From Patescibacteria group bacterium (GTDB lineage Bacteria; Patescibacteriota; Gracilibacteria; UM-FILTER-43-11), in NCBI GenBank assembly GCA_029260985.1, contig JAJDCE010000061.1:1-36855 (forward strand): a stretch of 36,855 bases of DNA, given 5' to 3'. Below are positions 2,633 to 36,855 of the stretch, in pieces. Positions within the stretch are counted from its first letter, which is position 1. Each line of letters starts with the position of its first letter. Under the pieces are notes generated by a model. The model did not search any database. It was not told the DNA's origin and saw only the letters and a list, made by a program, of their open reading frames with translations. Both the position numbers and the translations under genes were made by a program.

Positions 2633-2717
2633 TGGTGAGCGATGGAAGACTTGAACTTCCGACCTCTACATTATCAGTGTAGCGCTCTAACCATCCGCCT
2701 AAGGCGGATAATCGCTG
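2633..2717 (-). pseudogene. tRNA-Ile-like duplicate with its D-arm replaced by a 7-bp hairpin (att-like repeat or degenerate tRNA)
   Basis: 2633-2693 matches 2972-3032 at 60 of 61 nt (anticodon arm, T-arm, 3' acceptor strand, CCA). The 5' D-stem strand GCTCAGC is replaced by TCCGCCTTAGGCGGA. The acceptor stem has a C1-C72 mismatch. Confidence 0.6.
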
Positions 2718-5350: not shown

Positions 5351-5412
5351 AAATTTATTTTAAGGTCTTCGTAGAGTCTAACACGAAAAACCTATCATGA
5401 AAATCATGAGTC

Positions 5413-6930
5413 CTATTTGACCAATTCACCCGTATAAACCACCTCGAAAGCAGAACCGGGAACCGATTTGAGCTGTCCCAGATCGTCATCATCCCACTTA
5501 GCATTGGTCTCACCCGTAATAAACCAATCGGAACCATTATCAGCCACAATCATCCCATACTTTTTCAAAGCCTTCAAAATCACCAAAGCATCACCGGTAA
5601 AACCGGAAAGATCATAACTGGCTTTCAATCGCAAACGAAGCCCCATGGGTGAATGATTGGGATTGGTGGAAGAACTTGCATAATGAGTAGCGGGCTTGAT
5701 GTAAGCACGTTGGGATTCGCTAACGGTAAATCGAAGGGCGTGATTAATTTCACCCGATTTCACCTCATCGTATCGAACCAAACCTGGGAAAATCGGTAAA
5801 CCTGCCGCGTCAGCAGACGTCCAGCCGTCGGGTCGAAGGGCATTAGAATTGAGATCAAAAATGGCTCCTGATCCAACCTCCCATCTTGAACCTGACCAGG
5901 TAGAATCAAACGTTTCGTAAAGCTTACAGGCATCGGTATCAATCACCAGAATATGCCCGTCACTCCCCGCTTCAATCTCGGCACCGGAAGGAATAGGATA
6001 TCCTTCAGCAGGAAGATCGCTTTCATCATCATAATAAGCGCTAATCGGCACTTTCTTTTGACTGCTATCCACAGTCATCCACGGAATTCCGTAATCCGGA
6101 TTAGAACCGAAATCAGGGTGAATATTAGAACGGCCAGATAGAATTGAATTGATATAGCCGTCTGAGTTTTCATGAAGAGAATAGCCTGAAACATCAGTAT
6201 TCCAAGGATTGTCCGCAGGGAAGACCTGACACGATCCGACCTTCGGCGCGTCAACAGAGTTTTGAGTTTTCTCCTCCACCTCTTGGCTCTCTACATATTG
6301 GTGGGCTTTAGCAATAATCTTAGCTGCTTCACCTCGAGTGATTTTATTTCCAGGGCCAAACCGACCATCATTATAACCCTGAACATACCCCTTCATTACT
6401 GCAAACTGGATGTATTTTTTAAACCATTGATTCGACACATCAGAAAAATTTGAAAAACCACCCTTAATATCTGCATCAGAAAAAGCTGACAGCAAAATCA
6501 TTTTTAAAGCTTCAGCACGGTTCACTGATGTATTTGGCCTAAAGGAGCCGTTTGCATATCCCTTCACCCAACCCATTTTTTTTGCCTTATAAACCGCTGG
6601 AGCATACCAGGCAGATTCACTCACATCATAAAAATCATCCGAAGTGGTCGTTAAATCGCTCCCAAATTTACATTGAGTGAGCATCTTCGCAAGTTCAGCC
6701 CGAGTAATGGGTGTATCAGGTCTGAATTCCCCCAAATATTCACCATCTGCATTCTTAAAGCCATAAATTTGACACTCAGTTTTCAACTTATCTGCAAATG
6801 CCTTAGACCAATGAGAAGAGGTATCCCTAAAATCACTAGGAGGAGTTGCTGCAAACGCCATCGTAAAATAAACCGCCGTTAAAAGTATAGCGACAATAAT
6901 CGACAGAAGAATATGTATCGGCTTTTTCAT
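5413..6930 (-). CDS. S-layer-homology (3x SLH) domain cell-wall protein with an uncharacterised conserved C-terminal domain
   Basis: Signal peptide followed by three SLH repeats (F.D......W....I........G.v.Gy.dG.FrP...itR.E.a.mi). The C-terminal ~280 aa contains TSADAAGLPIFPGLVRYDEV...HALRFT. Confidence 0.85.
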   Translation of the reverse strand: MKKPIHILLSIIVAILLTAVYFTMAFAATPPSDFRDTSSHWSKAFADKLKTECQIYGFKNADGEYLGEFRPDTPITRAELAKMLTQCKFGSDLTTTSDDFYDVSESAWYAPAVYKAKKMGWVKGYANGSFRPNTSVNRAEALKMILLSAFSDADIKGGFSNFSDVSNQWFKKYIQFAVMKGYVQGYNDGRFGPGNKITRGEAAKIIAKAHQYVESQEVEEKTQNSVDAPKVGSCQVFPADNPWNTDVSGYSLHENSDGYINSILSGRSNIHPDFGSNPDYGIPWMTVDSSQKKVPISAYYDDESDLPAEGYPIPSGAEIEAGSDGHILVIDTDACKLYETFDSTWSGSRWEVGSGAIFDLNSNALRPDGWTSADAAGLPIFPGLVRYDEVKSGEINHALRFTVSESQRAYIKPATHYASSSTNPNHSPMGLRLRLKASYDLSGFTGDALVILKALKKYGMIVADNGSDWFITGETNAKWDDDDLGQLKSVPGSAFEVVYTGELVK

Positions 6931-9649: not shown

Positions 9650-9677
9650 TTGACAACTTTTAAGAAGGCACTATATT
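9650..9677 (+). promoter_or_regulatory. promoter TTGACA-N16-TATATT
   Basis: TTGACA at 9650-9655 (2 nt after the channel stop codon) and TATATT at 9672-9677. Predicted TSS near 9684. Confidence 0.6.
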
Positions 9678-9866
9678 GTTCTCAGCCAATGTGGAGTTTT
9701 TAGGGTGCTTTTTTGCAGTCCAGACTCCCATTATGATCTTTAGTAGTCCTTTTATAATTGTTGCCCGCTAAAAGCCAGTATTAATATGCTGATTTCTGAC
9801 GGGTAACAATGCTCGTAAACCGCCGCACGATGCGGCAAATGCGTTAACGCGAAAGCACAAGGAGAG

Positions 9867-10406
9867 ATGAGTATGGAGTTAAGCCTATCAATGAAAAGGT
9901 TTCTGGAAAAGGCAAGAGCCTGGCTGCTTCAGGGGATCGATATGATCGACGATCTCCTGGGAGCTAACGAAGCTGCCGACGAAGAAGGTCAGGCTGCTGG
10001 GGATCCACCGTCCGAAGAGCCTGCTCTCGCAGCAGCATCTGAGGAGGCCACAGCACCCGCCGAAGAGCCTGCAGCGGAAGAACCTGCCGTTGAGGAAGCC
10101 GAAGCCGAGGGTGAAGCCGATGATGAAGGCAACACCGAGACCGATGGTGACGGTGAAAGCGACGACGCCGATGGCGACACCGCCGATGGCGACACCGCCG
10201 AGACCGATGAAGGCAAAGGCGGCGGCGAGGCAGAAGAGCCTGATGCCGAGGGCGACGGCGAAAAGTCCGACGACGCTGAGGCCGAAGCCAAAGATGGTGA
10301 AGGCGACAGCAGCAACGATGGTGACGGCGAAGCCGAAGCCGACGCTGCACCCGCCGAAGAAACTGCAGCCGAAAAGGCCGAAGCAGAGGCCGCAACCCCT
10401 GCCTAA
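9867..10406 (+). CDS. extremely acidic low-complexity (E/A/D/G-rich) protein, compositionally atypical
   Basis: 179-aa ORF preceded by AGGAGA 7 nt upstream of the ATG. Amphipathic N-terminus, then a long Glu/Asp/Ala/Gly tract with a 15-nt tandem duplication (gccgatggcgacacc x2). About 65% G+C with C-ending codons. Confidence 0.65.
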   Translation: MSMELSLSMKRFLEKARAWLLQGIDMIDDLLGANEAADEEGQAAGDPPSEEPALAAASEEATAPAEEPAAEEPAVEEAEAEGEADDEGNTETDGDGESDDADGDTADGDTAETDEGKGGGEAEEPDAEGDGEKSDDAEAEAKDGEGDSSNDGDGEAEADAAPAEETAAEKAEAEAATPA

Positions 10407-10477
10407 AAAACAGCGAAAAGGCGCAGGGTCAGCGAGCGAAGGGCGACTAGAACTTATTGGGTGCTCCGTGTAACAGC

Positions 10478-10491
10478 GGGGCCCCTTTTTT
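10478..10491 (+). terminator. possible terminator: GGGGCCCC palindrome followed by T6
   Basis: ggggcccctttttt, 70 nt after the acidic ORF stop. The stem is short, so the call is weak. Confidence 0.35.
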
Positions 10492-10513
10492 AAATATAAA
10501 AATTTTACAAACC

Positions 10514-10544
10514 AAAAAATCCAATCGTATCCACAACTGGATTT
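10514..10544 (-). terminator. intrinsic terminator closing the 16S transcription unit
   Basis: Minus strand reads AATCCA-N14-TGGATT followed by a T-run (TGGATTTTTTGG), ~145 nt downstream of the 16S 3' end. Confidence 0.55.
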
Positions 10545-10688
10545 ACTATTGGATCTGCGATGGAACCTCCATCGGTATTATGTACTAAATGCAGTAAAGA
10601 ATTCTTAGAGTTCACGACCGTATGTAAGTCTCGCCTTGAATTAAACACAAGCTTTAATTCACGATGAGCAAACATTGCTTTCTCCTTT

Positions 10689-12152
<1,464 letters not shown>

Positions 12153-16852: not shown

Positions 16853-19108
16853 TTACTGTAATTCACCCTTAGCAACAATCACATCACTAAATGAGTGTAC
16901 ATTATTTTTATCATCTGTTACCTCCAATGTCACGCTATAAGTCCCAGGATTTTCAAAAGTATGAGAAGGTTTTCGACTATCACTCGTCTCCCCATCTCCA
17001 AAATCCCAACTATACTCACTCACCGCGCCGGTAGAACATTTAGAATCAAAAGTGACCGCTAAAGGAGCATTGCCTTCTTTTCGACTTGGCTCAAAACAAG
17101 CCCTGAGGGGAATTTCACGCACATAAATCGTTTGAATGGTTTCTGCGGACTCATTGTTATCCGTAGTTATTTTCAGCGTCACCTCGTAAGTTCCTACATT
17201 GTCGTATTTATGAGAAATTCGGGCGCTTGTAATGGATTTAGGCGACTCATCGCCAAAGTCCCATTCATAGCTCACAATACTGCCCTTATAAGCGCTAGAG
17301 GCAGAGCCGTCAAAGTTAACCGTAAGCGGAGCTGTCCCCTCTCCCGGATCAGCTGAAATAGACGCCTTTACGCCAGGCTCTTCAACGGTAACGGCAAGCA
17401 TAGTATTGTGCTTCTGATCCTCAGAATCTTTCACGGTAAGCGTTACCGTATAAGTACCCGCTTCTTCGTAAGTGTAATCAACTTTCTGACCCACCTGAGT
17501 CGCATCCTCTCGTCCAAAATCCCAGTTATACTCCACAATATCATCATCAGAATCAGTAGAAGTAGAGGCATCAAATGAAATCTTAAGGGGAAGTTCACCG
17601 GACAATGTTCCTTCAGCAGTTGCTGCCGGAGTAGTTGTGATGCGGGCTTCCGGAACAGAAGAGATAGAACTGGTTTCTACATCCACCGATACTACAGCCT
17701 CATTGCCGGTATCTTCAGTAACAGTAAGGGTAACCTTATAAGATCCTGGATTGCTGTAAACATGAGAAACTGATTTGCCTTTTGAAACCTGCGAACCATC
17801 TCCAAAATCCCATTTATAGCCAGTGATTGAACCTTTTAAACTTTTGCTCTTCTCCCCATCAAACCGCACCTGAAATGGAATAACACCGGTTAACCCTGGA
17901 GTCGCCTCAATATCAGCGCTCAGCAATGGCTGACCTGCCTTAGTGATTTCAACATCCCGGTAAAAATTCTTAACTAAGTTCTGCTCATCCACAAAACGAA
18001 GGTGAACTGCAAATGTGCCTATCTGTTCAAATTTATGAGAAGGCTTAAGATTGTCTTTACCAGTCAATTCATAAATACCATCACCATCAAAATCCCAGTC
18101 GAGACTTTTTACTTTAGCCCCCTGAGGAATCAAATTACTGGCATCAAATTGAACCTCAAGTGGCGCCGTGCCACTTGCGGGACTCGCTTCAAACAGGGCG
18201 TCTTCAATCGAAAGTAGATAATTATACTGCCGACGAGCGTCTTCACCTGTAATCGTTACTTCCACCCCTACATTATAATTACCTTGTAAATTATAGAGAT
18301 AGGAGATTTCAAGATCAGTGGCTGGAGTATTAAACGAACCGTCCCCTTCAAAATCCCAATTAAGAGCCGTGACTTGAAGTTTACTATTTTGAAGAGATTT
18401 TACGATATTCTCAGCGCTAAAAGTAACTTCAAGCGGAGCCTTAAGACCAGTCAATTCAGTGGGTTTGACCACGGTGATCTCAGCCAGCACTTTTTCAGCA
18501 GCAATTTCAATCTTACCGATAAAATTGTAGAGAAATAACCAGATAAACATCACAAGAATCATGGGAAGAACACCTACCAAAGTCATCTTTATGCCGCTCT
18601 TTTTAGCATCCTTATCTCCTTTCTTGGCAAAAAGAATTTTAAACACACCAATAACGGAGAGGACAAAGAAAAGGAGAGCCAGCAAGCCAAATGAGAGATT
18701 TACAATGGTTAAAAGAAAACGCTTTATGCCCGCCGCATCAATACCAAACGTGGCCAAAATAGGACTTTGCTCCCCGCCCGCAGCAATCACCAGCACCATC
18801 AGTACCACAAACACAACAAACAGACCTGCTAAACTCAAACCAATAATTGAAAGAAATTTGGCATTGCTCTTACGCTTCGCATTCTCCTTTCCGATTTTTG
18901 TTGGCGCAGGAGCAGGGGGTGGGGCAGGCTTAGTTTCTTCTGCACCTCCAGAGGGCTTGGGAGCAATGGGCTGCGCTTCGGAAGAGGGTTGATTAGCCTG
19001 AACAGTCTCAGCCTCAGGAGAAACTTGAGGTTGGTTTTCTGCAGGAACACCCTGAGAATTCTGACCTTCAGGCTGCTGCACATCATTTGGTAGATTTTCG
19101 TCTGACAT
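16853..19108 (-). CDS. multi-pass membrane protein with six extracellular PKD-type repeats
   Basis: 751 aa. Pro/Gln/Ala-rich N-terminus and ~4 TM helices, then six repeats each carrying WDFxGDG-type motifs (WDFEGDG, WDFDGDG, WDFGDGS, WDFGRED, WDFGDES, WDFGDGE). Confidence 0.85.
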   Translation of the reverse strand: MSDENLPNDVQQPEGQNSQGVPAENQPQVSPEAETVQANQPSSEAQPIAPKPSGGAEETKPAPPPAPAPTKIGKENAKRKSNAKFLSIIGLSLAGLFVVFVVLMVLVIAAGGEQSPILATFGIDAAGIKRFLLTIVNLSFGLLALLFFVLSVIGVFKILFAKKGDKDAKKSGIKMTLVGVLPMILVMFIWLFLYNFIGKIEIAAEKVLAEITVVKPTELTGLKAPLEVTFSAENIVKSLQNSKLQVTALNWDFEGDGSFNTPATDLEISYLYNLQGNYNVGVEVTITGEDARRQYNYLLSIEDALFEASPASGTAPLEVQFDASNLIPQGAKVKSLDWDFDGDGIYELTGKDNLKPSHKFEQIGTFAVHLRFVDEQNLVKNFYRDVEITKAGQPLLSADIEATPGLTGVIPFQVRFDGEKSKSLKGSITGYKWDFGDGSQVSKGKSVSHVYSNPGSYKVTLTVTEDTGNEAVVSVDVETSSISSVPEARITTTPAATAEGTLSGELPLKISFDASTSTDSDDDIVEYNWDFGREDATQVGQKVDYTYEEAGTYTVTLTVKDSEDQKHNTMLAVTVEEPGVKASISADPGEGTAPLTVNFDGSASSAYKGSIVSYEWDFGDESPKSITSARISHKYDNVGTYEVTLKITTDNNESAETIQTIYVREIPLRACFEPSRKEGNAPLAVTFDSKCSTGAVSEYSWDFGDGETSDSRKPSHTFENPGTYSVTLEVTDDKNNVHSFSDVIVAKGELQ

Positions 19109-20115: not shown

Positions 20116-23100
20116 TTATTGCGGTTTTATCCAATCCGGCGTAGGTCCTTTTTCATCAGCCCCTGCACTTGTATCACCTTCAGAAAGTGGAGGTGTTTCT
20201 TGTACAGGTGGGGTTTCAGACTGAGGTGCTTCTGGTGTTGGATCAACTGGTGTTTCAGGCTGATCGCTTATCGCTGCCTGCCCGCCTTCTGGCGCGAACT
20301 GCTGATCGCTTTCAGCAGCAGGTTTCTTCTTCTTTCGGCGTCTTCGTCGTCTTTTTTTCTTCTTTGGAGCTTCGCCTTCTGGAGTTTCAACAGGAGGAAC
20401 AACAGGAGCCTTGGGCATTTCTGGTGCTGGCTCCTCTGCCGGAACTTCATCAGTTTTTTCCTCAACAGGAACTTCTTCAGTTAAGGGTTCAGAAACCTCC
20501 TCCGTTGGCATTTCCTCTGGCATTACCTCCTCAGTTGTTGGCTCTGAAGTCTCTGGAGCTACAGGAACCTCCTCAATTATTTCCTCAGCAGCTTCATCCA
20601 CTGGCAACTCTTCATCCAAGGATGGTTCAGAATAGCCCTCACCCAATATATCAAGAGGTTCTTCAGCAGGCATTGGAGTTTCAATTCCCTCCTCAGGCGA
20701 AGAATAATCTTCAGAAAACTCTGGAGATTCATCGGACAAAGGTTCAGGAGATTCATCTTCAACAGGAAGCTCGAATGATTCTTCATCGATAGACTCCGCA
20801 TTGTCCAAAGAAATTTCCTCTTCCGCTTCCCCTTCAATCACCTCAGTTCCCTTTAACCACTCAGGCACAGGGCCTTCCGCTTCAGTCGTAAAATCAGCTT
20901 CGACTGGCTCACTGCCTACGGCAGGTTCGGCAGGTGCCTCTTCCTGAGCAGGCTCAGGCGCTTCAGTTGTTTCTGCAAAAGTCTGTGGAGCAGTGGGTTC
21001 TGCAACCACTTCCGCAGCTGAATCATCCGTAGCCTTAACAGAGGGTTGATCAGTAGGCGTAGGCACATCCGCAGAGGGAGCTTCGGTAGCCTGAGGCGTA
21101 ACAGGAGGCGCTTCATGCGCTCCGATCATCGTCAAAACCTTCGCTTTAAATTCATCAATCAGCTCTTCAAAAGTTAGGTCTGGATGCTGAACTTTAAGGT
21201 AGGCAAGAAAACCGCCAACAATAAGAAGAATAAGACCAAGCACAATTACAATCAGTAAAAAGAATATCTTCAGAAGCCGGATAAACACATTTGATTTCTT
21301 GACCTCTTGCTCCTCACCACCAGTAACCATCATTGCGCCATCTTCAGCACCCACCACATCAGCCGCGTCAGCAATCTCAATTTCAGTGGATTTAGTATCC
21401 GTTACCTGATCTGAATCCGTAATAGTCAAAGTCACCAAATACTTACCCTTAACGGTATAACTATAGGTAGGATTCTCCCCCCCTATTTCAGCGATCTGAT
21501 TCTGATAATTTGAATCATCAGTATCTCCAAAACTCCACTGATAGAAAAGATTTTTATCAGTCAAATTATAGGAAGCTGAAGAAAGATTAGTGAAACTCAC
21601 CGTAGAACCTGAAACCTCATAAGAAAAATTAGCTTTAGTGAGCTCAACATCTTTTGCAACAATATCTAAAGTCCGCTCAGCAGAATTACCCGCTTTATCA
21701 GAAATCTTCGCTGTAACGGTAAAAGCGCCTGGCTCATCATATATATATTGGGTTGTATTATCGCCTTCAATTTCTTTATCGAATGTTCCATCTCCATCAT
21801 AATCCCATTCAAAAGAATACTGACCCAAACCTTGTTGAAGTCCTTGAACCGTAAACAAAATAGGATCTCCCTTAACCACAAAATCTTTGTCAGCTGTTAA
21901 CTGAATACCACCCGCTTGCTCTACATCTTTAATAGAAGGGGCAGGTGAAGCTGGCTTATCCCCAAATGTGATTTCTTTCTGAACCCGGCTCCCTTTACCC
22001 TCTTCACCCACTACAATAAGCTGGGCAATGATCTGTTCTTCTGTTTTTGCATAATCAACATCAAAAACGTCACCGGTCTTAAAAGAAAGGTCGTTGAGAT
22101 TATCAATGTCATTTTTAGGATCACCATCACCGTCACTGTCTTCAAAAATATTCTTATCGAGTCGATATTCCAGTATCCTTCCTTCCGAAGGACGGGCATA
22201 AAAAGAAACAGTATGAGAATCTTCCCATAAATGAATTATACTATCGGTTTCATCGGCCTTAGGCAGCGTCTGGAGGATTGCTGTGGGATCACCGGTAGTC
22301 CGATGTTCCTCAAACAAAATTTCAACCTGCTTCTTAACCTTTTTACCACTCTTATCTACTAAAGTCACCTCAGCAACAGTTTTAGCTGAATCACCCTGTT
22401 TATAATCAGCCGACCAAGCCGTGCCTGTTAAATACGAGTTGTCAGAAGCATTGTCGATATCGTTATTGGCAGTACCGTTATCATCGCTATCTTCATATAT
22501 ATTCTGATCAATACGATATTCCAATATATCCCCATAAGAATCAGCCAGTTCAAATTGAACCTTGCCGTCACCCAGTAACGTCACTTGATCCGAACCATTC
22601 ATCGGAGGAAGCGTTTTGAGATGAATAGAAATCAATGATTCACTCGCTCCGGTAGCCACCGTCGCCTTACCTAAAACTTCACCGTCTTTCGAGACCACTT
22701 CACCAGAGTCATTCAACGTTCCAATTACCTTACCGGTCTCATCGACTACAACATTATTTCTACCAACCGTTCCAAGCGCCTTCCCGTCTTCATCCCGAAG
22801 GATATCCCCCAGCTTCGCGTCAGAAACAGGTGTGGCGGAAAGACGGCTGTAACGGTCTCCGGATAGAACATTTATTGTTGTGGATTCAACTTCATTACCA
22901 AAAGTGGCGGTTAAATTGATTTTAAATTCACCTTGGCTATTAAAGGTATAGCTAAAATTACGCCCGGCTTGAGTCGCTAAAATTTCAGTTCCCTTTGCCA
23001 CTGTCCATTTATAGTTAGCAGCCGAATTCTTACTGTCTGCGATTAAATCAGCTCGCTCACCGATTTTGACTTCCATCTTCCCACTCGCCATCACCAGACC

Positions 23101-23160
23101 ACTTCCGATCAGGAAGGTTCCGAGGAGAACAGCCACTGCTTTTTTTAACTTTATAAACAT
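20116..23160 (-). CDS. type-I membrane surface protein: signal peptide, PKD-like repeats, DxDxDG Ca-binding-like modules, one TM helix, ~350-aa acidic Pro/Glu-rich cytoplasmic tail
   Basis: 1014 aa. Repeats contain YKWTV, FEWDYDGDG and YQWSFGD. A duplicated module has EYR[IL]D.NI[YF]EDSD.[ND]G..NDIDN. TM helix is IFFLLIVIVLGLILLIVGGFLAYL. The tail carries a KKKKRRRRRRKKKK patch. Confidence 0.85.
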   Translation of the reverse strand: MFIKLKKAVAVLLGTFLIGSGLVMASGKMEVKIGERADLIADSKNSAANYKWTVAKGTEILATQAGRNFSYTFNSQGEFKINLTATFGNEVESTTINVLSGDRYSRLSATPVSDAKLGDILRDEDGKALGTVGRNNVVVDETGKVIGTLNDSGEVVSKDGEVLGKATVATGASESLISIHLKTLPPMNGSDQVTLLGDGKVQFELADSYGDILEYRIDQNIYEDSDDNGTANNDIDNASDNSYLTGTAWSADYKQGDSAKTVAEVTLVDKSGKKVKKQVEILFEEHRTTGDPTAILQTLPKADETDSIIHLWEDSHTVSFYARPSEGRILEYRLDKNIFEDSDGDGDPKNDIDNLNDLSFKTGDVFDVDYAKTEEQIIAQLIVVGEEGKGSRVQKEITFGDKPASPAPSIKDVEQAGGIQLTADKDFVVKGDPILFTVQGLQQGLGQYSFEWDYDGDGTFDKEIEGDNTTQYIYDEPGAFTVTAKISDKAGNSAERTLDIVAKDVELTKANFSYEVSGSTVSFTNLSSASYNLTDKNLFYQWSFGDTDDSNYQNQIAEIGGENPTYSYTVKGKYLVTLTITDSDQVTDTKSTEIEIADAADVVGAEDGAMMVTGGEEQEVKKSNVFIRLLKIFFLLIVIVLGLILLIVGGFLAYLKVQHPDLTFEELIDEFKAKVLTMIGAHEAPPVTPQATEAPSADVPTPTDQPSVKATDDSAAEVVAEPTAPQTFAETTEAPEPAQEEAPAEPAVGSEPVEADFTTEAEGPVPEWLKGTEVIEGEAEEEISLDNAESIDEESFELPVEDESPEPLSDESPEFSEDYSSPEEGIETPMPAEEPLDILGEGYSEPSLDEELPVDEAAEEIIEEVPVAPETSEPTTEEVMPEEMPTEEVSEPLTEEVPVEEKTDEVPAEEPAPEMPKAPVVPPVETPEGEAPKKKKRRRRRRKKKKPAAESDQQFAPEGGQAAISDQPETPVDPTPEAPQSETPPVQETPPLSEGDTSAGADEKGPTPDWIKPQ

Positions 23161-23200
23161 TTAATCTTCTAATCTTTTAATCTTGAATCTTGTAATTTAA
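23161..23200. repeat. tandem 7-8-nt repeats (TAATCTTN x3, AATCTTG) filling the gap between the two giant genes
   Basis: t taatcttc taatcttt taatcttg aatcttg taattta, immediately upstream (minus strand) of the ATG at 23160. Confidence 0.8.
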
Positions 23201-23204
23201 TAAA

Positions 23205-26200
23205 TTATTTAACCTGAAGAACAGCGTCTTCAGTTAACTCTCCGTAAACGGTATTGGTCGCGCGTACCTTAATACGCACCCTACCGGAATCAACACCGGT
23301 AAAAACAGATGAAGCCTTGGAATCTTCGGCCGTCACTGGATTTGGAGTGAATTGACCACTGCCATCTGCAACTTCAAAGTAAACAATACCTTTATAAGGA
23401 GTTCCATCTGCATTCAAAACCGTAACATTCACATCAGCCGTACCCCCTTTCTGAACCGTTGAAGGAGCAACCTCAATATCCACGGTTGTAAGTGGATTCC
23501 GGGGTGCCGTTACCTTTAAGGATTGATAAGTATTTCTTAAACGATCCTCATCGGTCAAACTTAGGTTAATATCCCGAACCACAACGCCTTCTGACCCCAA
23601 TGAGTCCTTTACTTTCAGGCGCACTCGGTAATTAGCTTTAGCATCATAAATAAAACCTGGCTGCATTTCAGTCGATTGCACATCATCATCCTTCGTTCCA
23701 TTTCCATTAGCATCATCATCAATATCAAAATCCCATTCATACCGAAGGGTAGTGTCAGAAAGAGAGGGGTCAAAGCGCGAATGACCGCCATCAAAAGTCA
23801 CTTTGGTTTCATCAATAGAATAAGTAAAAGCGGCTTGAGGTAATGAATCGGTTGATTCCACAAAAACTGCTTTAGTCGCGCTACTCGATAGTCCTCGATG
23901 CACCACTTTAAGGCGTACATCGTATTCTCCCGGTGTATTGAACTGCCGGTTCACCTGAGCACCCGAAGTTGTATCATCAAATTCGCCATCGCCGTCAAAA
24001 TCCCATCGGAAAGCGTCGGAAGGGAGTTCTTCACCTTGAGGGTCATAAGACTTTGAGATAAAAGTAATGCTATCTCCTGTGCTAATAGTGGTTTTATCTA
24101 GAGTAAACTCAGCCACTGGCGACAGATTCGGACCATTTTTTACATCCATATAGCTGACTTCACCAAAGCGTTCAACAGTGCTATACACCCCGTTATCATT
24201 ATCGGTAACCTCCACCACAAAGAAGTAGCGATTAACAATGTCAGCCTCTCCAAAAGACGTAATGGTCATATTCGTTTCAGAAGTCGAAGTACTATGAGTT
24301 CCAAGCTTTGCGCCTTCGAATCCATCCCGATAATACCACCAACGGTATTTTTTAATCGTACCATCCAAATCTTTTGGATTGATGACCTTAAGTTTTATTT
24401 TGGTTGGCGTGACAAGTTCATCAATCGCATCTGCCAAAATAGGTGGAGTAATCACAAAATCCTTAATCTCAGGAAGCTGATTGATCACTTTAAAATAAGC
24501 AATATCCTCCTGACTCAAACTCCCTTTCAGTTGGTCTTTAACCACCAGGCTAACTGAGAAACATTCCCCCTCACGGTTAATCTCATCAAATTTATAACGG
24601 GTCTGTTTCTGACTGCTCTTTTCACCACCAGGAAGCTTCCAGTCATACAGTAACAAACGGGATGATCCATCGGTATTAATGGAATCTTTTGCATCCAAAA
24701 GGATGCTGTCCATTCGAGTCACTACTGCCGCATCCTTTCCCTCACCACAAAGATCTTCTACCAATAGTGGCTGCCGACCATTCGTTGTATGAGTGATTGC
24801 TGCCACAGGCTCATCGGTAGAACCGACCAGAATCCGAAGCGTATCGACATTATCATTATCATCTTTGTCGAAGAAGTTCATTCGAACCGTGAATTTACCC
24901 GTCTTATCATAAGTATGTGAAATAGTTGTTTCTTCTGTACTATCGGTTTCATCATCTCCAAATTCCCAAAGGTAGGCTACAGAATTGGAACTCTCGGCGG
25001 TAAACTGGATAGGTTCACCCACTCGGGTGGCACGCTTATCCACTTTAATATCACCTACTAAAACCGATTGAATGGAAACGTTCTTATTTACCTGACGGTG
25101 TTTACCAAAAGCATCTTTGACTTGAAGCACCACATTGTATTCACCTACCTGCAGGTACTCATGAGTCGCCAAAGCCTCTTTCTTATCAACGAGTTCAAAA
25201 TCGCCATCCCCGTCAAAATCCCATGAAAACGTGATCACATCACCGGAATCCGGGTCATAACTGTTGATCGCATTAAACTCAACCCGATTAGGGTGATTTT
25301 TTTCCGGGATATTATAGTTAAAACTGGCCACAGGATCTCTGGAAAGCACTTTAAGAACATCAACAAATTTATCCTGAGTTCCAAGAATATCGGTTACCAC
25401 TAACGTGATTTTATAATCACCGGGCTTAGCAAAGCGATGAGTAAAACTGCTTTCACTGTTATCCAGCACTTTTTTACCGTCAGCATCTTCAATCTTCCAA
25501 TCAAAACTCTTGATCACTCCATCGTCACTTCGTGAGCCGGCTCCTGAGAATTTAAACTCTGTATTCACATTAGACGAAGGTGGAGAAACCGTAATATCCG
25601 CTGCAAGTGATTTAACATTCAATTTAACCACTGCTGAATCCTTGGTTCCCAGATTATCGGTGACAGTAAGCTTGAGGGTATATTCCCCTTTCTTAGCATA
25701 CGTATGAACCACCGTCGTTGGGCTATTCCGAACATCGAGAGTTGCATCACCAAAATTCCATTCATACTTTTCAATTTTACGACCCAAAGACGCCTTAGTG
25801 GGCGAAGGGTCAATCGAAAGACCTGCCTGGGCTTCCTTTAACGTTACATTAAAGAAATCCTTAGCTTGTTTTCCGTTGATTCTAAACGCTACATTCGATG
25901 TAGGAGGTTGAGCCTTGATCCGAACCACCGAAACGCCGTCAGCAGCCGTTTTATAGCCATCAGCATCCTTCTGAGAAGTAGAAGCTCTGAGACGAACCGC
26001 ATACGAATTCGGTTTAGTGAATTCATGAAGCACTACGGGATCTGACCCAAGTGACACTTCATTGCCTGAATTATCAAGGAATGACCATTTGTATTCACTG
26101 ATCGTTCCACCCGTTGGATCCACACTATCAAGTCCATCCAACTGAACCGTAAAAGGCACATTGCCAACCCCGGGAGTCGCTGTTATTCGGGCTTTAACAA

Positions 26201-27197
26201 TAGGATATTTGCGAATCAGTTCTTTGAGCTTTTTATATTTAGCCTCAAAGCGCCTGTATTTAACCTGATCAGCTGGGCTATCGATCACATCATCAAGAGC
26301 TTTTGAAGTTTCATCATAAGAAGTAATGATTTCCTTAGATTCAGGCATATTCTTTCTGAGTTCATCCAGCTGATCCCTGAGTATCTTAAGTCGAGTCAGG
26401 CCGCTTAAAAATTGTTCTAAACGCACCACTTCTTCCGGAGTCAAGCCATACTTTCCTGGATTGTTAATCATGTCTCGGATGTTCTCGATTTTTTTATCGA
26501 TCGTATTGCCATTTTTTAGTGCTTCATCAACCTTTTTCTTTGCGGCTTCAGATAGCTTTTTGTCGTTTAGATTAAGGTCATTCTCAAGCCCCTTCATCGT
26601 TTCATCCATCTTATCTGTGTTCTTTTTAGAGGCTGGCTCTGCCTCACTGCCTGTCACAGAATTCTTATCTTTCACTGGATCCTCCTTAAGGGCTTCACAA
26701 ACACTGTTTAAACAGTTGTAGCCTCCAGGACAATCAGCGCTAGTGGTACACGCAATGGCAGAACTCGGTGGAGTAACTGTTTCAGTCCCTGCAGAAGAAG
26801 TAATAAATCTTACAATTGAAAAAGAAAGAATTACCACTACAATCCCCAAAGCAGCATAGGTCATAATTTTCTTCGCCTTCGTAATCATCTCCTCATTCCC
26901 ACCGCTAAGCACCCAAAGTACACCCGCATAGATGAACGCTAAAGTGGCAAAGAAGCCCAGGAAGCTGATAAAATAATTCACCATAGCCAGCAAGGTATCT
27001 CCAAATGATTTCTTAGAGATTGACGAGCTGATTTCTACCGTACCAGAGCCCTGTGGTATTGAAAGCCCTGAACCTCCTGTAGAAAGATTACCCGCTAACG
27101 CTTCAGGAACAGTATTCACTAAAACCACAGCCAATATCATCATTATAAAAACGACTGAAAAAGATTTTAGCCAGTGCTTTAGATTAAAACATTTCAT
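23205..27197 (-). CDS. giant surface protein: N-terminal VirB2/TrbC-like pilin domain fused to a Cys motif, a coiled coil, at least 9 PKD-like repeats and a C-terminal Big-like domain
   Basis: 1330 aa. Residues ~60-130 (FGDTLLAMVNYFISFLGFFATLAFIYAGVLWVLSGGNEEMITKAKKIMTYAALGIVVVILSFSIVRFI) are paralogous to the adjacent 144-aa protein. Repeated [YF].W.F.D motifs occur throughout. Confidence 0.88.
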   Translation of the reverse strand: MKCFNLKHWLKSFSVVFIMMILAVVLVNTVPEALAGNLSTGGSGLSIPQGSGTVEISSSISKKSFGDTLLAMVNYFISFLGFFATLAFIYAGVLWVLSGGNEEMITKAKKIMTYAALGIVVVILSFSIVRFITSSAGTETVTPPSSAIACTTSADCPGGYNCLNSVCEALKEDPVKDKNSVTGSEAEPASKKNTDKMDETMKGLENDLNLNDKKLSEAAKKKVDEALKNGNTIDKKIENIRDMINNPGKYGLTPEEVVRLEQFLSGLTRLKILRDQLDELRKNMPESKEIITSYDETSKALDDVIDSPADQVKYRRFEAKYKKLKELIRKYPIVKARITATPGVGNVPFTVQLDGLDSVDPTGGTISEYKWSFLDNSGNEVSLGSDPVVLHEFTKPNSYAVRLRASTSQKDADGYKTAADGVSVVRIKAQPPTSNVAFRINGKQAKDFFNVTLKEAQAGLSIDPSPTKASLGRKIEKYEWNFGDATLDVRNSPTTVVHTYAKKGEYTLKLTVTDNLGTKDSAVVKLNVKSLAADITVSPPSSNVNTEFKFSGAGSRSDDGVIKSFDWKIEDADGKKVLDNSESSFTHRFAKPGDYKITLVVTDILGTQDKFVDVLKVLSRDPVASFNYNIPEKNHPNRVEFNAINSYDPDSGDVITFSWDFDGDGDFELVDKKEALATHEYLQVGEYNVVLQVKDAFGKHRQVNKNVSIQSVLVGDIKVDKRATRVGEPIQFTAESSNSVAYLWEFGDDETDSTEETTISHTYDKTGKFTVRMNFFDKDDNDNVDTLRILVGSTDEPVAAITHTTNGRQPLLVEDLCGEGKDAAVVTRMDSILLDAKDSINTDGSSRLLLYDWKLPGGEKSSQKQTRYKFDEINREGECFSVSLVVKDQLKGSLSQEDIAYFKVINQLPEIKDFVITPPILADAIDELVTPTKIKLKVINPKDLDGTIKKYRWWYYRDGFEGAKLGTHSTSTSETNMTITSFGEADIVNRYFFVVEVTDNDNGVYSTVERFGEVSYMDVKNGPNLSPVAEFTLDKTTISTGDSITFISKSYDPQGEELPSDAFRWDFDGDGEFDDTTSGAQVNRQFNTPGEYDVRLKVVHRGLSSSATKAVFVESTDSLPQAAFTYSIDETKVTFDGGHSRFDPSLSDTTLRYEWDFDIDDDANGNGTKDDDVQSTEMQPGFIYDAKANYRVRLKVKDSLGSEGVVVRDINLSLTDEDRLRNTYQSLKVTAPRNPLTTVDIEVAPSTVQKGGTADVNVTVLNADGTPYKGIVYFEVADGSGQFTPNPVTAEDSKASSVFTGVDSGRVRIKVRATNTVYGELTEDAVLQVK

Positions 27198-27201
27198 AAA
27201 T

Positions 27202-27636
27202 TTACTGTTTCTGAATACCCGTTACCAGCTCCTGGGTAAGGAGTTGGACAATGCTGTAAGAAAGAATCACAACAATCAGGCCGAGTACCGCATAAATCAT
27301 CACCTTCTTGGCCTTCTGAACCTGCTCATCATTACCATAAGCCGTGATATACAAAACCCCAGCGTAAACAAAGCCGACAAAAGCCGCAATCGCCAGGAAC
27401 GGTAAGGCAAAATTCACATATTTTAGCACCAAATCTCCTACATCACTCGTTCCAGTCACCCCACTACCCTCAAGAGAACCTTTAATATTATCCACTCCCG
27501 ACTGAGTATCTGTCTTTGTTTTATCTTCAGAGCCCTTAAAGATCTGAGCCAACCCCTTAGGCGCAAAAGCAAAAAACAGCACCATCACTGAGATGATTCT
27601 GCTATAAACATTTTGAATTATTTGTGCAATTTTCAT
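27202..27636 (-). CDS. VirB2/TrbC-like (T4SS-pilin-type) small membrane protein
   Basis: 144 aa. Signal peptide ending GLAQ, then two TM helices joined by a short basic loop (YGNDEQVQKAKK). This architecture matches conjugative-pilin-like proteins abundant in CPR genomes. Confidence 0.75.
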   Translation of the reverse strand: MKIAQIIQNVYSRIISVMVLFFAFAPKGLAQIFKGSEDKTKTDTQSGVDNIKGSLEGSGVTGTSDVGDLVLKYVNFALPFLAIAAFVGFVYAGVLYITAYGNDEQVQKAKKVMIYAVLGLIVVILSYSIVQLLTQELVTGIQKQ

Positions 27637-27669
27637 TTTTATTTCTGAACCTTAAGTGCGTGTAATTGG

Positions 27670-27704
27670 GCTTAAAGCTTAAAGCTTACTGCTTACGGCT
27701 TTTT
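27670..27704. repeat. tandem heptamers GCTTAAA GCTTAAA GCTTACT GCTTACG GCTTTTT in the pilin-gene leader
   Basis: Read directly. Lies between the predicted TSS (~27710) and the ATG at 27636. Confidence 0.85.
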
Positions 27705-27716
27705 ATGTTTCTTTAT

Positions 27717-27745
27717 ATTATAGCAAATTTGACCCAGATTTGCAA
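27717..27745 (-). promoter_or_regulatory. promoter TTGCAA-N17-TGcTATAAT (extended -10) for the pilin/PKD operon
   Basis: Reverse complement of 27740-27745 is TTGCAA and of 27717-27722 is TATAAT, preceded by TGc. Confidence 0.65.
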
Positions 27746-27877: not shown

Positions 27878-27904
27878 AAAAACCCACCCTCAATTGAGAG
27901 CGGG
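27878..27904 (-). terminator. intrinsic terminator after the sigma-r4/HARE-HTH gene
   Basis: Minus strand reads CCCGCTCTC-AATT-GAGGGTGGG (9 bp including 2 G-U pairs) followed by TTTTT, 24 nt after the stop at 27928. Confidence 0.65.
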
Positions 27905-27927
27905 CTTCTTTAATTTAAAACAAATGA

Positions 27928-35600: not shown

Positions 35601-36855
35601 TCAGATTTGCTGGATTTTAACCCACTCCTTTTCACTAAAATCAAACCTTAATTCGATAGTCTTATTATTGTTTTTAAAGCTGATATCAACGACATCTCCG
35701 ATATTGAAATCATAGGGAAATGTATGAGACGTTATTTCCCACCCATTATAAGAAGAGGTGTTAGCGCTGACATAAGCATCATCAAATTCTATAGTCGTGT
35801 AACCGTAAATATTGCTCGTATAATTTAAATTGATTAAAAGATTTTCAGATACTTCATCGGGCATCACACTAAATCCTGAGCTACCATCCGGATTAATAGC
35901 AAGTTCGTAAATAGTACAATTGTCATTATCAAGATACACACCGGAATCAATAAAGTATTTTAAACGAACACGGTCATTATTACACCCCTGAACGGTCGTA
36001 AATGTATATTCACCTCCATCATCGATCATAACATCGTATTTGGAACCAGAATATTCTTCGGGAACTGCCATGCCTGGATTATCAGTAGACACGGAGGATT
36101 CACCTGTTGTGAAGTCTTCCGTAAAATACATCTTGCCGTCTTTCACATAAACTCCAATCCCCACGTCAGTGAACTTAAGACAAGTTGCCAGAATCGTAGT
36201 GCGGTGATTATGACACTCATGAGGTTCGGGCATAAATATATTGGTATGAACGTCCTTCACGGCCTGATAAGGGCTTCGATATTTTGAAACGACCCCTTTT
36301 CCCACATTCTCCCCTGCCCTGCCGGGATAATTATAATATTTCTTTATTCTGTCCCAGGATTGACTGCCATCAGAACCCTGATGGCTCATATCACCTATAT
36401 TTTCAGCCATATCCTTTGCATGATCTCTGGCTGACATGGTCAGTTCCTTTTTCAATCTGAGCTCAGTCGTGACTCCATTATCTTTTCGTAATTTTAGAAG
36501 TAATAGAAAAGTCGAAAATTCCGCGCCAATCTCTTCCGTCCATACAGGATCATCCATATAATCGATCTGCATTATGCGCGCCACCATTTCCGCAACCTCA
36601 CCTCTGGTACGGTCATTTGACGGGTAAAAATAATTACCTGATTCTTCAAGAAAGTTTTTCTGTTTAGCGGATTCAAGATATGGCGCGTACCAAGCATCGA
36701 AAGGGGTGTCCTTAAACAGCGCTTTATTGGGAGTCCCCTGCTTTATCTCAAAAGCATTCAGAATGATTTTTAATGCCTCAACCCTATTCACATTCTGAGA
36801 GGGTTGATAGGTTCCATCTGGATACCCCTTCACCCAATCTTGATCGAGCGCATAA
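35601..36855 (-). CDS. SLH-domain / CAP (SCP, YkwD-like) domain secreted protein, N-terminus outside the window
   Basis: SLH repeats (VKGYPDGTYQPSQNVNRVEALKII; FKDTPFDAWYAPYLESAK...RGEVAEMVAR), then a CAP/YkwD-like core (ARDHAKDM...MSHQGSDGS...AGENVG...H..NI). The frame stays open to the window edge. Confidence 0.8.
   Translation of the reverse strand, partial: YALDQDWVKGYPDGTYQPSQNVNRVEALKIILNAFEIKQGTPNKALFKDTPFDAWYAPYLESAKQKNFLEESGNYFYPSNDRTRGEVAEMVARIMQIDYMDDPVWTEEIGAEFSTFLLLLKLRKDNGVTTELRLKKELTMSARDHAKDMAENIGDMSHQGSDGSQSWDRIKKYYNYPGRAGENVGKGVVSKYRSPYQAVKDVHTNIFMPEPHECHNHRTTILATCLKFTDVGIGVYVKDGKMYFTEDFTTGESSVSTDNPGMAVPEEYSGSKYDVMIDDGGEYTFTTVQGCNNDRVRLKYFIDSGVYLDNDNCTIYELAINPDGSSGFSVMPDEVSENLLINLNYTSNIYGYTTIEFDDAYVSANTSSYNGWEITSHTFPYDFNIGDVVDISFKNNNKTIELRFDFSEKEWVKIQQI

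Follow-up and report, generated by a model that had tools for sequence, protein, structure and literature searches.

A pilin-family hairpin fused to a giant PKD stalk, encoded beside a free pilin paralogue at a conserved Patescibacteria locus

Results

A pilin-like protein, a pilin::PKD fusion, and a PKD membrane protein are encoded in a putative operon

A chromosomal stretch of 36,855 nucleotides from a Patescibacteria group bacterium (contig JAJDCE010000061.1), referred to here as the window, carries three adjacent minus-strand open reading frames whose products combine a pilin-like module with repeats of the PKD type. Gene 1 encodes a small, free pilin of 144 amino acids (aa), gene 2 a 1330-aa protein in which a second copy of the pilin module is joined to a very long PKD stalk, and gene 3 a 1014-aa PKD protein with a single transmembrane (TM) helix (Table 1). 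The gaps between them, read directly from the sequence, are 4 nt (gene 1 to gene 2) and 44 nt (gene 2 to gene 3). An initial annotation, made from the letters of the sequence alone, had described three co-directional genes of these sizes and spacing, and the open reading frame coordinates agree with it.

Upstream of gene 1 lies a TTGCAA-N17-TATAAT site with TG ahead of the −10 element, which is the top-scoring promoter-like site of the region (10/12). The region holds 15 promoter-like sites against 15.3 expected by chance, so a single site of this kind carries little weight by itself. However, TTGNNN-N17-TATAAT was found upstream of gene 1 in 19 of 19 orthologous loci, with a spacer of exactly 17 nt everywhere and with the TG before the −10 element kept throughout (TGC in 17 loci and TGG in 2). 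Further upstream, a hairpin followed by a run of T residues was recognized by reading the sequence, the consensus terminator scanner having failed to call it. An equivalent GC-rich hairpin and T-run, with different stem sequences, directly follows the upstream gene in 18 of the 19 loci. Because both elements are conserved among the orthologous loci, the promoter and the insulating terminator proposed in the initial annotation can be taken as real conserved features, and genes 1–3 read as a tightly spaced operon behind one shared, conserved promoter.

Genes 1 and 2 carry paralogous hairpins of the T4SS pilin family

The gene 1 product is predicted to consist of a signal peptide (aa 1–31), an extracellular N-terminal segment of ~35 aa, and a helical hairpin (aa 66–135, nt 27232–27441). 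The loop of the hairpin reads GNDEQ..KAKK, in which K110 and K111 are invariant. Hydropathy and an AlphaFold2 (AF2) model, which consists of a signal-peptide helix and a hairpin (H66–100/H103–143), are both in keeping with the signal-peptide/two-TM layout first assigned to this protein. Its orthologues make up more than 50 clusters, with lengths of 131–165 aa.

Both proteins score above the Pfam gathering cut-off of 26.6 bits for PF18895 (T4SS_pilin; T4SS, type IV secretion system), gene 1 with 37.4 bits and gene 2 with 30.7 bits over residues 66–132. The family was also matched by all 32 gene 1 orthologues that were tested. In BLASTP, gene 1 and the N terminus of gene 2 share 46% identity over 83 aa (E = 8e-22), in line with the paralogy seen by eye in the initial annotation, and no further pilin hairpin was detected among the remaining open reading frames of at least 40 aa in the window. 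The pair thus shows the features of the Patescibacteria T4SS pilins, that is, a score above the cut-off, a signal peptide and a two-helix hairpin with a short basic loop, and adjacent divergent paralogues, and by these sequence features genes 1 and 2 are assigned to this family.

In gene 2 the hairpin continues into a predicted extracellular stalk

In the gene 2 product, a predicted signal peptide (aa 1–35) precedes the hairpin, and the hairpin is followed by the four-cysteine module that had been noticed initially and that can be written C150-x5-C156-x5-C162-x4-C167. Among gene 2 orthologues this module is present in one to ~6 tandem copies, the order of the parts remaining unchanged. In 15 of 17 orthologues, the cysteines after the hairpin number 4, 8, 12, 20, or 24; the other two have 22 and an incomplete copy. 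Cysteine-containing inserts were also observed in the extracellular N-terminal segment of several gene 1 orthologues (P0025, P0030, P0046, P0050, P0053, P0056, P0060, and P0062). Some of these resemble the four-cysteine module of gene 2, which fits an extracellular position of both hairpin ends.

The next ~150 residues, previously described as a K/E-rich coiled coil, are instead predicted to fold as a multi-helix bundle (aa 186–340), modeled by AF2 with a pLDDT (predicted local distance difference test) of 85–95. No significant fold match to this bundle was found in the PDB, the best (E = 0.39) being to generic bundles. A VirB5-like identity of the domain was considered and rejected, there being no VirB5/TraC-like fold match. 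The stalk proper gave strong Pfam matches to PKD_4 (2.3e-67) and PKD (5.1e-57), with 7 matched stretches for each model, and searches with iterative hidden Markov models (HMMs) resolved nine repeats, in accordance with the at least nine counted at first. The C-terminal 118 residues, which the initial annotation had called Big-like, match neither a Pfam family nor a PDB sequence, so that label was not retained; their column identity among orthologues is 0.61. Based on hydropathy and charge, we infer that the basic KAKK loop is cytoplasmic and that both ends of the hairpin point outward, which would make the ~1,200-aa region of gene 2 that follows the hairpin extracellular.

Gene 3 and a neighboring 751-aa protein are further membrane-anchored PKD proteins

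Gene 3 encodes a predicted type I membrane protein. It has a signal peptide and an ectodomain with three PKD repeats and two motifs of a calcium-binding type (DxDxDG...NDIDN), followed by the single TM helix (aa 622–659, nt 21184–21297), so the PKD/Ca-module architecture ascribed to it at the outset holds. A PDB sequence search with the calcium-motif region returned no match. Not mentioned in the initial annotation is a 364-aa tail, predicted to be cytoplasmic, that is acidic and proline-rich (98 D/E and 57 P). A motif of the form GPxP[DE]W[IL]K occurs at aa 763 and 1005 of gene 3 and is also C-terminal in the orthologue from the genome CP064978.1; it may be a docking motif for a cytoplasmic partner.

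Past a convergent PHP gene, a separate transcription unit encodes a 751-aa protein with a proline-rich cytoplasmic N terminus, three TM segments, and six PKD repeats. Its last two TM segments form a pilin-like hairpin (aa 127–195, nt 18524–18730). The window copy remains below the threshold of PF18895 (16.6 bits), and profile-profile support from hhalign against the gene 1 family is weak, with probabilities of 2.8% and then 7.5%. On the other hand, PF18895 is the family most often matched by orthologues of the protein (10 of 16, best E = 2.7e-5), and on this basis it probably carries a divergent pilin hairpin. For all four proteins (the products of genes 1–3 and the 751-aa protein), the predictions place an anchor in the membrane and the PKD parts on the outer side.

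The arrangement is conserved in Peregrinibacteria and Peribacteria

The nearest homologues of both pilin proteins come from metagenome-assembled genomes (MAGs) labeled as Candidatus (Ca.) Peregrinibacteria, Ca. Peribacteria, Ca. Gracilibacteria, or "Patescibacteria group." The best-matching relative is a Ca. Peribacteria contig, with 80% identity for the N terminus of gene 2 and 98% for the regulator-like gene upstream. By these matches, the window belongs to a Peribacteria-like patescibacterium, an ultrasmall organism that probably lives attached to a host. Gene order was compared, in loci of sufficient length, across ~20 species-level Peregrinibacteria/Peribacteria genomes that are GTDB representatives. 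The order sigma70_r4/HARE-HTH gene, pilin, pilin::PKD giant, PKD/TM protein, PHP gene (opposite strand), PKD protein of ~750 aa, and aroA-aroK was found in these genomes, in the complete Peregrinibacteria genome CP064978.1, and in three long metagenomic contigs. This order is invariant, the gap between genes 1 and 2 is 2–38 nt in all orthologous loci, gene 2 has a gene 3 orthologue as its immediate downstream neighbor wherever the locus is long enough, and the 751-aa protein is syntenic with the operon in all relatives. Full-length gene 2 orthologues of 1333–1507 aa, with their parts in the same order, were recovered from independent assemblies of different projects. In the scan of GTDB representatives, the arrangement was restricted to Peregrinibacteria/Peribacteria-type genomes. 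The initial annotation had staked its proposal on similarity to a pilin family and on synteny of the triad in relatives, and both were found.

In CP064978.1 (L001/L009; L001 9450–19934), frameshifts split each of five homologues, those of genes 1–3, of the PHP gene, and of the gene for the 751-aa protein. Because the frameshifts hit all five neighboring genes, they are probably indel errors of long-read sequencing rather than marks of pseudogenes.

Within the two pilin proteins, conservation is concentrated in the hairpin. Across 17 orthologues, pairwise column identity of the hairpin is 0.71 in gene 2 and 0.69 in gene 1, the highest of any part of either protein, compared with 0.29–0.31 in the signal peptides (0.31 in gene 1) and 0.42–0.43 in the linker and helical regions of gene 2. 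Each of the two hairpin paralogues also retains its own signature residues across the 17 genomes. That the hairpin is the most conserved region of both proteins and bears paralogue-specific signatures argues that it makes specific protein–protein contacts, with its counterpart or with a machine, and would not be a mere hydrophobic anchor.

A second, paralogous locus was found in Ca. Peribacteria MAGs (L028–L031; e.g. L029:8359–17649). It opens with two three-hairpin proteins of ~315 aa, which are followed by a hairpin::PKD giant of 1,680–1,714 aa and then by a relative of the 751-aa protein. Because the same association is seen at this second locus, the pairing of a pilin hairpin with a giant PKD protein is a repeated, selected design.

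Pilin genes are often remote from secretion genes in Patescibacteria

As the initial annotation had stated for the 37 kb, no VirB4, VirD4, PilB/T, or sortase is encoded among the open reading frames of at least 100 aa in the window. It had concluded that assembly would need a distant or unknown machine, but by the published record such an absence is not unusual. PF18895/VirB2-like pilins have been reported in 1948 Patescibacteria assemblies that also contain VirB4; the pilin lies near virB4 in 1135 of these and lacks such proximity in ~40%, and 441 arrays of 2–11 divergent pilin genes were described (PMC12102498). VirB4 itself was detected in 2417 of 3035 Patescibacteria assemblies (~80%), and in the class Gracilibacteria T4SS parts are dispersed, TrsD and VirB3 being unlinked to virB4 (PMC12102498). 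Because T4SS parts are dispersed in this class and the pilin is often distant from virB4, a pilin pair remote from its machinery is ordinary for Patescibacteria, and no unknown machine is required. Pilin arrays in Peribacteria and in other Candidate Phyla Radiation (CPR) classes likewise have no T4SS genes within 10 kb, only murB, gyrA, genes for a solute-binding protein and an SPFH protein, and housekeeping genes. In Saccharibacteria, Paceibacterota, and other CPR (L033, L035, L036, and L037), the pilin arrays with the greatest similarity to the window's hairpin stand in a conserved context of gyrA, solute-binding protein, pilin, and SPFH-protein genes.

The family is large, with 40,375 representative clusters matched at E ≤ 1e-3 by a profile of the two window hairpins. 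Among the family proteins examined, extensions of more than 1,000 residues beyond the hairpin occur only in gene 2 orthologues. Genes for VirB2-like pilins are essential in the cultured Saccharibacterium Ca. Southlakia epibionticum, where the array lies within an essential T4SS cluster (PMC10633639), and VirB2-like pilins are among the highest-expressed genes of unknown function in Paceibacterales (PMC10936435).

Comparison with known pilins and adhesins

The closest known counterparts are the pilin arrays of other Patescibacteria, such as Ca. Southlakia epibionticum ML1 and Nanosynbacter lyticus TM7x, which share with the present pair the PF18895 match, the signal peptide and two-helix hairpin, and a chromosomal location often away from virB4. 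The 46% identity between genes 1 and 2 falls within the range of these arrays, whose paralogues have a mean identity of 25% and a maximum of 54% (PMC12102498). Unlike in those arrays, one paralogue here bears a covalent stalk of ~1,200 aa, and the pair is coupled to PKD membrane proteins and not to T4SS genes.

VirB2, TrbC, and TraA, the pilins of the T-pilus and F-pilus type, resemble gene 1 in size, leader peptide, and the presence of two hydrophobic helices with a short basic loop, but differ in that their profile is matched only below threshold, no solved pilin is matched, and no VirB4, VirB5, or VirB6 is linked to the pair in the window. Both pilin termini lie at the exterior of T- and F-pili, so a C-terminal fusion would point outward. 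We know of no natural VirB2 or TraA with a large fused domain, and the literature search returned no description of a covalent fusion between a VirB2-type pilin and an adhesin, in agreement with the view first taken. Previous work covers the pilin family and its arrays of paralogues; the one part that appears to be undescribed is the covalent joining of pilin and adhesin.

Modular type IV pilins (PilB and PilC of Streptococcus sanguinis; the minor pilins CofB and TcpB) combine a pilin module with an adhesin on its C-terminal side and are encoded beside the major pilin. Gene 2 shares this design idea, but fold and machinery are unrelated, because those pilins have a single N-terminal helix and a signal peptide of class III and use the PilD/PilB system. 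A type IV pilin or type II secretion pseudopilin was accordingly rejected: the class III motif G|F/M-x-x-x-E is absent from all four proteins, and no PilB, PilC, or PilD is encoded in the window. A sortase-assembled pilin or adhesin was rejected as well, with neither an LPXTG-like motif nor a sortase gene in the window.

The role proposed for gene 2, contact with a host or recipient, is the same as that of VirB5 at the tip of Gram-negative pili and of PrgB, the LPXTG aggregation substance of pCF10; unlike the gene 2 pilin fusion, both of these are separate proteins. Fibrillar adhesins also offer a likeness, with a tandem immunoglobulin (Ig)-like/PKD stalk between a membrane or wall anchor and a distinct domain at the opposite terminus. 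By the count of PKD/Ig repeats (gene 2, nine; 751-aa protein, six; gene 3, three), the window proteins have stalks of this type. Instead of a sortase signal, a lipobox, an SLH domain, or a single TM helix, however, the anchor of gene 2 is a conserved pilin hairpin with an adjacent free paralogue.

Finally, the Pam pilus of Ca. Mycosynbacter amalyticus is a CPR-specific, machine-free pilus of Ig folds joined by donor-strand exchange, reported chiefly in Saccharimonadia and Microgenomatia (bioRxiv 10.64898/2026.03.03.709456). The filament proposed here would share with it CPR specificity, Ig-like folds, and the lack of an adjacent trans-envelope machine. Membership in the Pam group was rejected: scores against the PamR model NF058578 were 16.6–51 bits against a cut-off of 300, which reflects generic Ig/PKD similarity, and no PapD-like chaperones are encoded in the window.

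Other features of the window

Besides the pilin locus, the window contains the chromosomal genes for 16S rRNA, tRNA-Ile, an aroA-aroK fusion, queG, hflX, a DEAD-box helicase, and SLH-domain wall proteins (Table 1). The two SLH-domain proteins and a CarboxypepD_reg-domain protein suggest a walled, S-layered envelope. The 382-aa sigma70_r4/HARE-HTH protein is 75–98% identical among relatives and always adjoins the pilin operon upstream, with the conserved terminator between them. The ~1 kb downstream of the 16S rRNA gene (9650–10688) is GC-rich and A-skewed, holds only overlapping open reading frames on both strands, and has no Rfam match. A 61-nt tRNA at 2636–2696 (minus strand) was called by Rfam at 38 bits and is absent from the ARAGORN output; it may be a truncated or unusual tRNA.

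Table 1. Features of the pilin locus and its surroundings, with positions given in window coordinates
Feature	Positions	Strand	Basis or remark
Gene 1, free pilin, 144 aa	27202–27636	−	PF18895 match, AF2 model, orthologues
Gene 2, modular pilin (putative), 1330 aa	23205–27197	−	PF18895, PKD_4, and PKD matches; AF2 model of aa 1–345
Gene 2 pilin hairpin, aa 66–134	26796–27002	−	Paralogous to gene 1 hairpin
Gene 2 four-cysteine module, aa 150–167	26697–26750	−	Sequence; small beta-hairpin predicted
Gene 2 helical-bundle domain, aa 186–340	26178–26642	−	AF2 model, six helices
Gene 2 PKD/Ig-like repeats (nine), aa 350–1212	23562–26150	−	Iterative HMM envelopes
Gene 2 C-terminal domain, aa 1213–1330			Without family assignment
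Gene 3, type I membrane protein, 1014 aa	20116–23160	−	Pfam, sequence analysis
Gene 3 tail region, aa 660–1014	20119–21183	−	KKKKRRRRRRKKKK K/R run and two GPxP[DE]W[IL]K motifs
Promoter: −35 TTGCAA, 17-nt spacer, extended −10 TGcTATAAT	27717–27745	−	Top site of region, conservation
Intrinsic terminator after sigma70_r4/HARE-HTH gene: hairpin GCCCGCTCTC-AATT-GAGGGTGGG, then TTTTT	27878–27905	−	Read from sequence
Sigma-70 region 4 + HARE-HTH protein, 382 aa	27928–29076	−	Directly upstream of pilin operon
751-aa PKD protein	16853–19108	−	Separate transcription unit past convergent PHP gene
aroA-aroK fusion (EPSP synthase + shikimate kinase), 631 aa	14826–16721	−
16S rRNA gene	10689–12152	−	23S gene not found in window
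Two SLH-domain proteins and 735-aa CarboxypepD_reg-domain protein	3143–6930 and 35601–36833	−

Discussion

The operon may encode a device for surface adhesion whose core is a VirB2-like pilin module. Both pilins would be exported by Sec and then cut by signal peptidase, and their hairpins would insert so that the KAKK loop lies on the cytoplasmic side and both ends face out. Because both hairpins are strongly and specifically conserved, those of genes 1 and 2 may co-assemble. The free pilin would then form the body of a VirB2-type filament, which the fusion would enter sparsely, for example at the tip, and the PKD stalk would thereby be presented to the host cell. Polymerization would be powered by a presumed VirB4-type T4SS whose genes lie at another chromosomal site, the usual situation in the class, and gene 3 and the 751-aa protein would supply further membrane-anchored PKD parts of the same apparatus. 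A published survey of Patescibacteria T4SS detected no adhesin of the PrgB type (PMC12102498), and the fusion would be the adhesin that otherwise seems to be missing from these loci. Co-assembly in this form, with gene 2 as a minor or tip subunit of a free-pilin filament made by a distant T4SS, is favored here with a probability of roughly two in five. The broader claim, that this is the first modular VirB2-type pilin, in which a T4SS-family pilus of a monoderm CPR bacterium carries a host adhesin covalently on a pilin that is co-polymerized with its free paralogue, is for now rather unlikely.

Several results weigh against such a filament. The TrbC/VirB2 profile PF04956 matches gene 1 with only 16.3 bits (E = 0.011) against a gathering cut-off of 27.9 and does not match gene 2. 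When the family profile was compared with PDB sequences, no solved conjugative pilin was retrieved (VirB2, TraA, TrwL, TraM, or the archaeal CedA1/TedC), and a Foldseek search with the AF2 model of gene 1 gave only generic helical hairpins (best E = 2.4) and no pilin. No T4SS gene was found in the window or within ±10 kb of the operon in any relative, and the literature search returned no paper linking Peregrinibacteria with VirB4. Furthermore, many members of the family are poly-pilins, with 2–9 tandem hairpins per chain and at least two hairpins in 124 of the 207 family proteins examined. Examples are P0068 (552 aa) and P0179 (1039 aa), both within the series P0068–P0207, as well as P0010 and P0012; no discussion of such proteins was found in the literature examined on the family. 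Poly-pilins seem hard to reconcile with the extraction of single pilin subunits into a pilus. In P0112 (612 aa) and P0143 (503 aa), the hairpin is fused to an SLT lytic transglycosylase, which has VirB1-like activity, and to a PG_binding_1 domain. Taken together, the poly-hairpin proteins and the fusions to wall domains suggest a module that stays in the membrane more than a subunit that can be extracted into a pilus, and the PF18895 hairpin is, judging from these architectures, a general module, for example for mounting wall-acting domains. In addition, no filament of a PF18895 pilin has been reported in the literature for any organism, and a review goes no further than a "potential to elaborate conjugative pili" (PMC12857230).

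The missing matches to known pilins are weak negatives and uninformative, as short helical hairpins are hard targets for sequence-profile and fold searches. Weak matches to the TrbC/VirB2 profile were obtained with 16 of 32 orthologues (best E = 6.4e-6), together with scattered weak matches to other pilin-like families of integrative and conjugative elements (ICEs), including the Mycoplasma ICE pilin-like family NF045849. The conjugative-pilin identity given to both domains in the initial annotation therefore stands as far as the T4SS_pilin family is concerned but not under the TrbC/VirB2 label, which remains below threshold and finds no solved pilin by sequence or fold. The two hairpins may plausibly be kin to VirB2 proper.

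Polymerization of the pilins into an adhesive fibre that takes in the fusion, as first suggested, is a hypothesis, and a membrane-anchored adhesin complex fits the data about equally well. In such a complex, which would need neither pilus nor T4SS and must be counted a serious contender, the hairpin would serve as a specific module for oligomerization or anchoring in the membrane. Gene 2 would be a fibrillar adhesin held in the cytoplasmic membrane by its hairpin, with a hetero-oligomeric base made up of gene 1, and perhaps of the 751-aa protein, packed beside it, and gene 3 would act as co-receptor or spacer, the ~50-nm stalk spanning wall and S-layer unaided. The predicted membrane anchoring of all four proteins with their PKD parts outside is what this explanation would lead one to expect, and the SLH-domain proteins in the window fit the walled, S-layered envelope that a long stalk must cross. 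The lack of T4SS genes near the operon, here and in the ~20 relatives, also speaks for it, as do the PF18895 pilus that has never been observed, the frequency in the family of poly-hairpin chains, which are polytopic membrane proteins, and the fusions to SLT and peptidoglycan-binding domains, which work beside the membrane. Yet a plain anchor needs no free paralogue that is always adjacent, behind the same promoter, in ~20 species. In other classes, moreover, the family is tied to T4SS clusters, as in the 1135 assemblies with the pilin near virB4 and the essential cluster of S. epibionticum, and the very high expression of the pilins in Paceibacterales suits the subunit of a polymer.

An improbable third explanation keeps the filament and dispenses with VirB4, the pilin pair polymerizing through Sec/YidC insertion and lipid packing or through some other machine. 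This would amount to a new route of pilus biogenesis, descended from VirB2-like pilins. It would account for the consistent lack of a linked ATPase gene at the pilin loci of this lineage and for the nearest arrays of other CPR classes (those beside gyrA, solute-binding protein, and SPFH genes), which have no VirB4 within 10 kb, and a CPR precedent for a machine-free pilus exists in Pam (bioRxiv 10.64898/2026.03.03.709456). No positive evidence for this route was obtained, however, and pulling a two-TM pilin out of the membrane normally costs energy; the presence of VirB4 in ~80% of Patescibacteria assemblies and the documented dispersal of T4SS genes in the class also count against it. That the fusion arose from an assembly or gene-calling error, or that the paralogy is mere compositional similarity of helices, may be set aside as refuted by the comparative sequence data: the homologous genes lie in pieces in CP064978.1, but there the frameshifts hit all five neighbors in the manner of long-read errors, the 1330-aa reading frame is uninterrupted here and has intact orthologues in independent assemblies, and the similarity (E = 8e-22) extends over the polar loop and the signature residues.

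Patescibacteria (the CPR) account for perhaps a quarter or more of bacterial diversity, and their cultivated members live attached to host cells. The T4SS and VirB2-like pilins are essential in the sole genetically tractable species, and no T4SS adhesin has been described from the phylum. The pilin::PKD fusion with its free paralogue is a concrete, testable candidate for this missing adhesin and may show how such bacteria hold on to their hosts. Its stalk is big enough for labeling or cryo-electron tomography and so offers a handle on whether these pilins polymerize. If the fusion stays out of the filament, the name "T4SS pilin" would be misleading for a large share of the ~40,000 sequence clusters that make up the family. 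If it does enter, it would stand as the first modular pilin of the conjugative (VirB2) type known from nature. Should this prove true, the poly-hairpin proteins and hairpin–enzyme fusions would then join it in indicating that Patescibacteria have made the VirB2 hairpin a general-purpose mount by which proteins are displayed on a surface filament, and this filament might even assemble without a linked T4SS.

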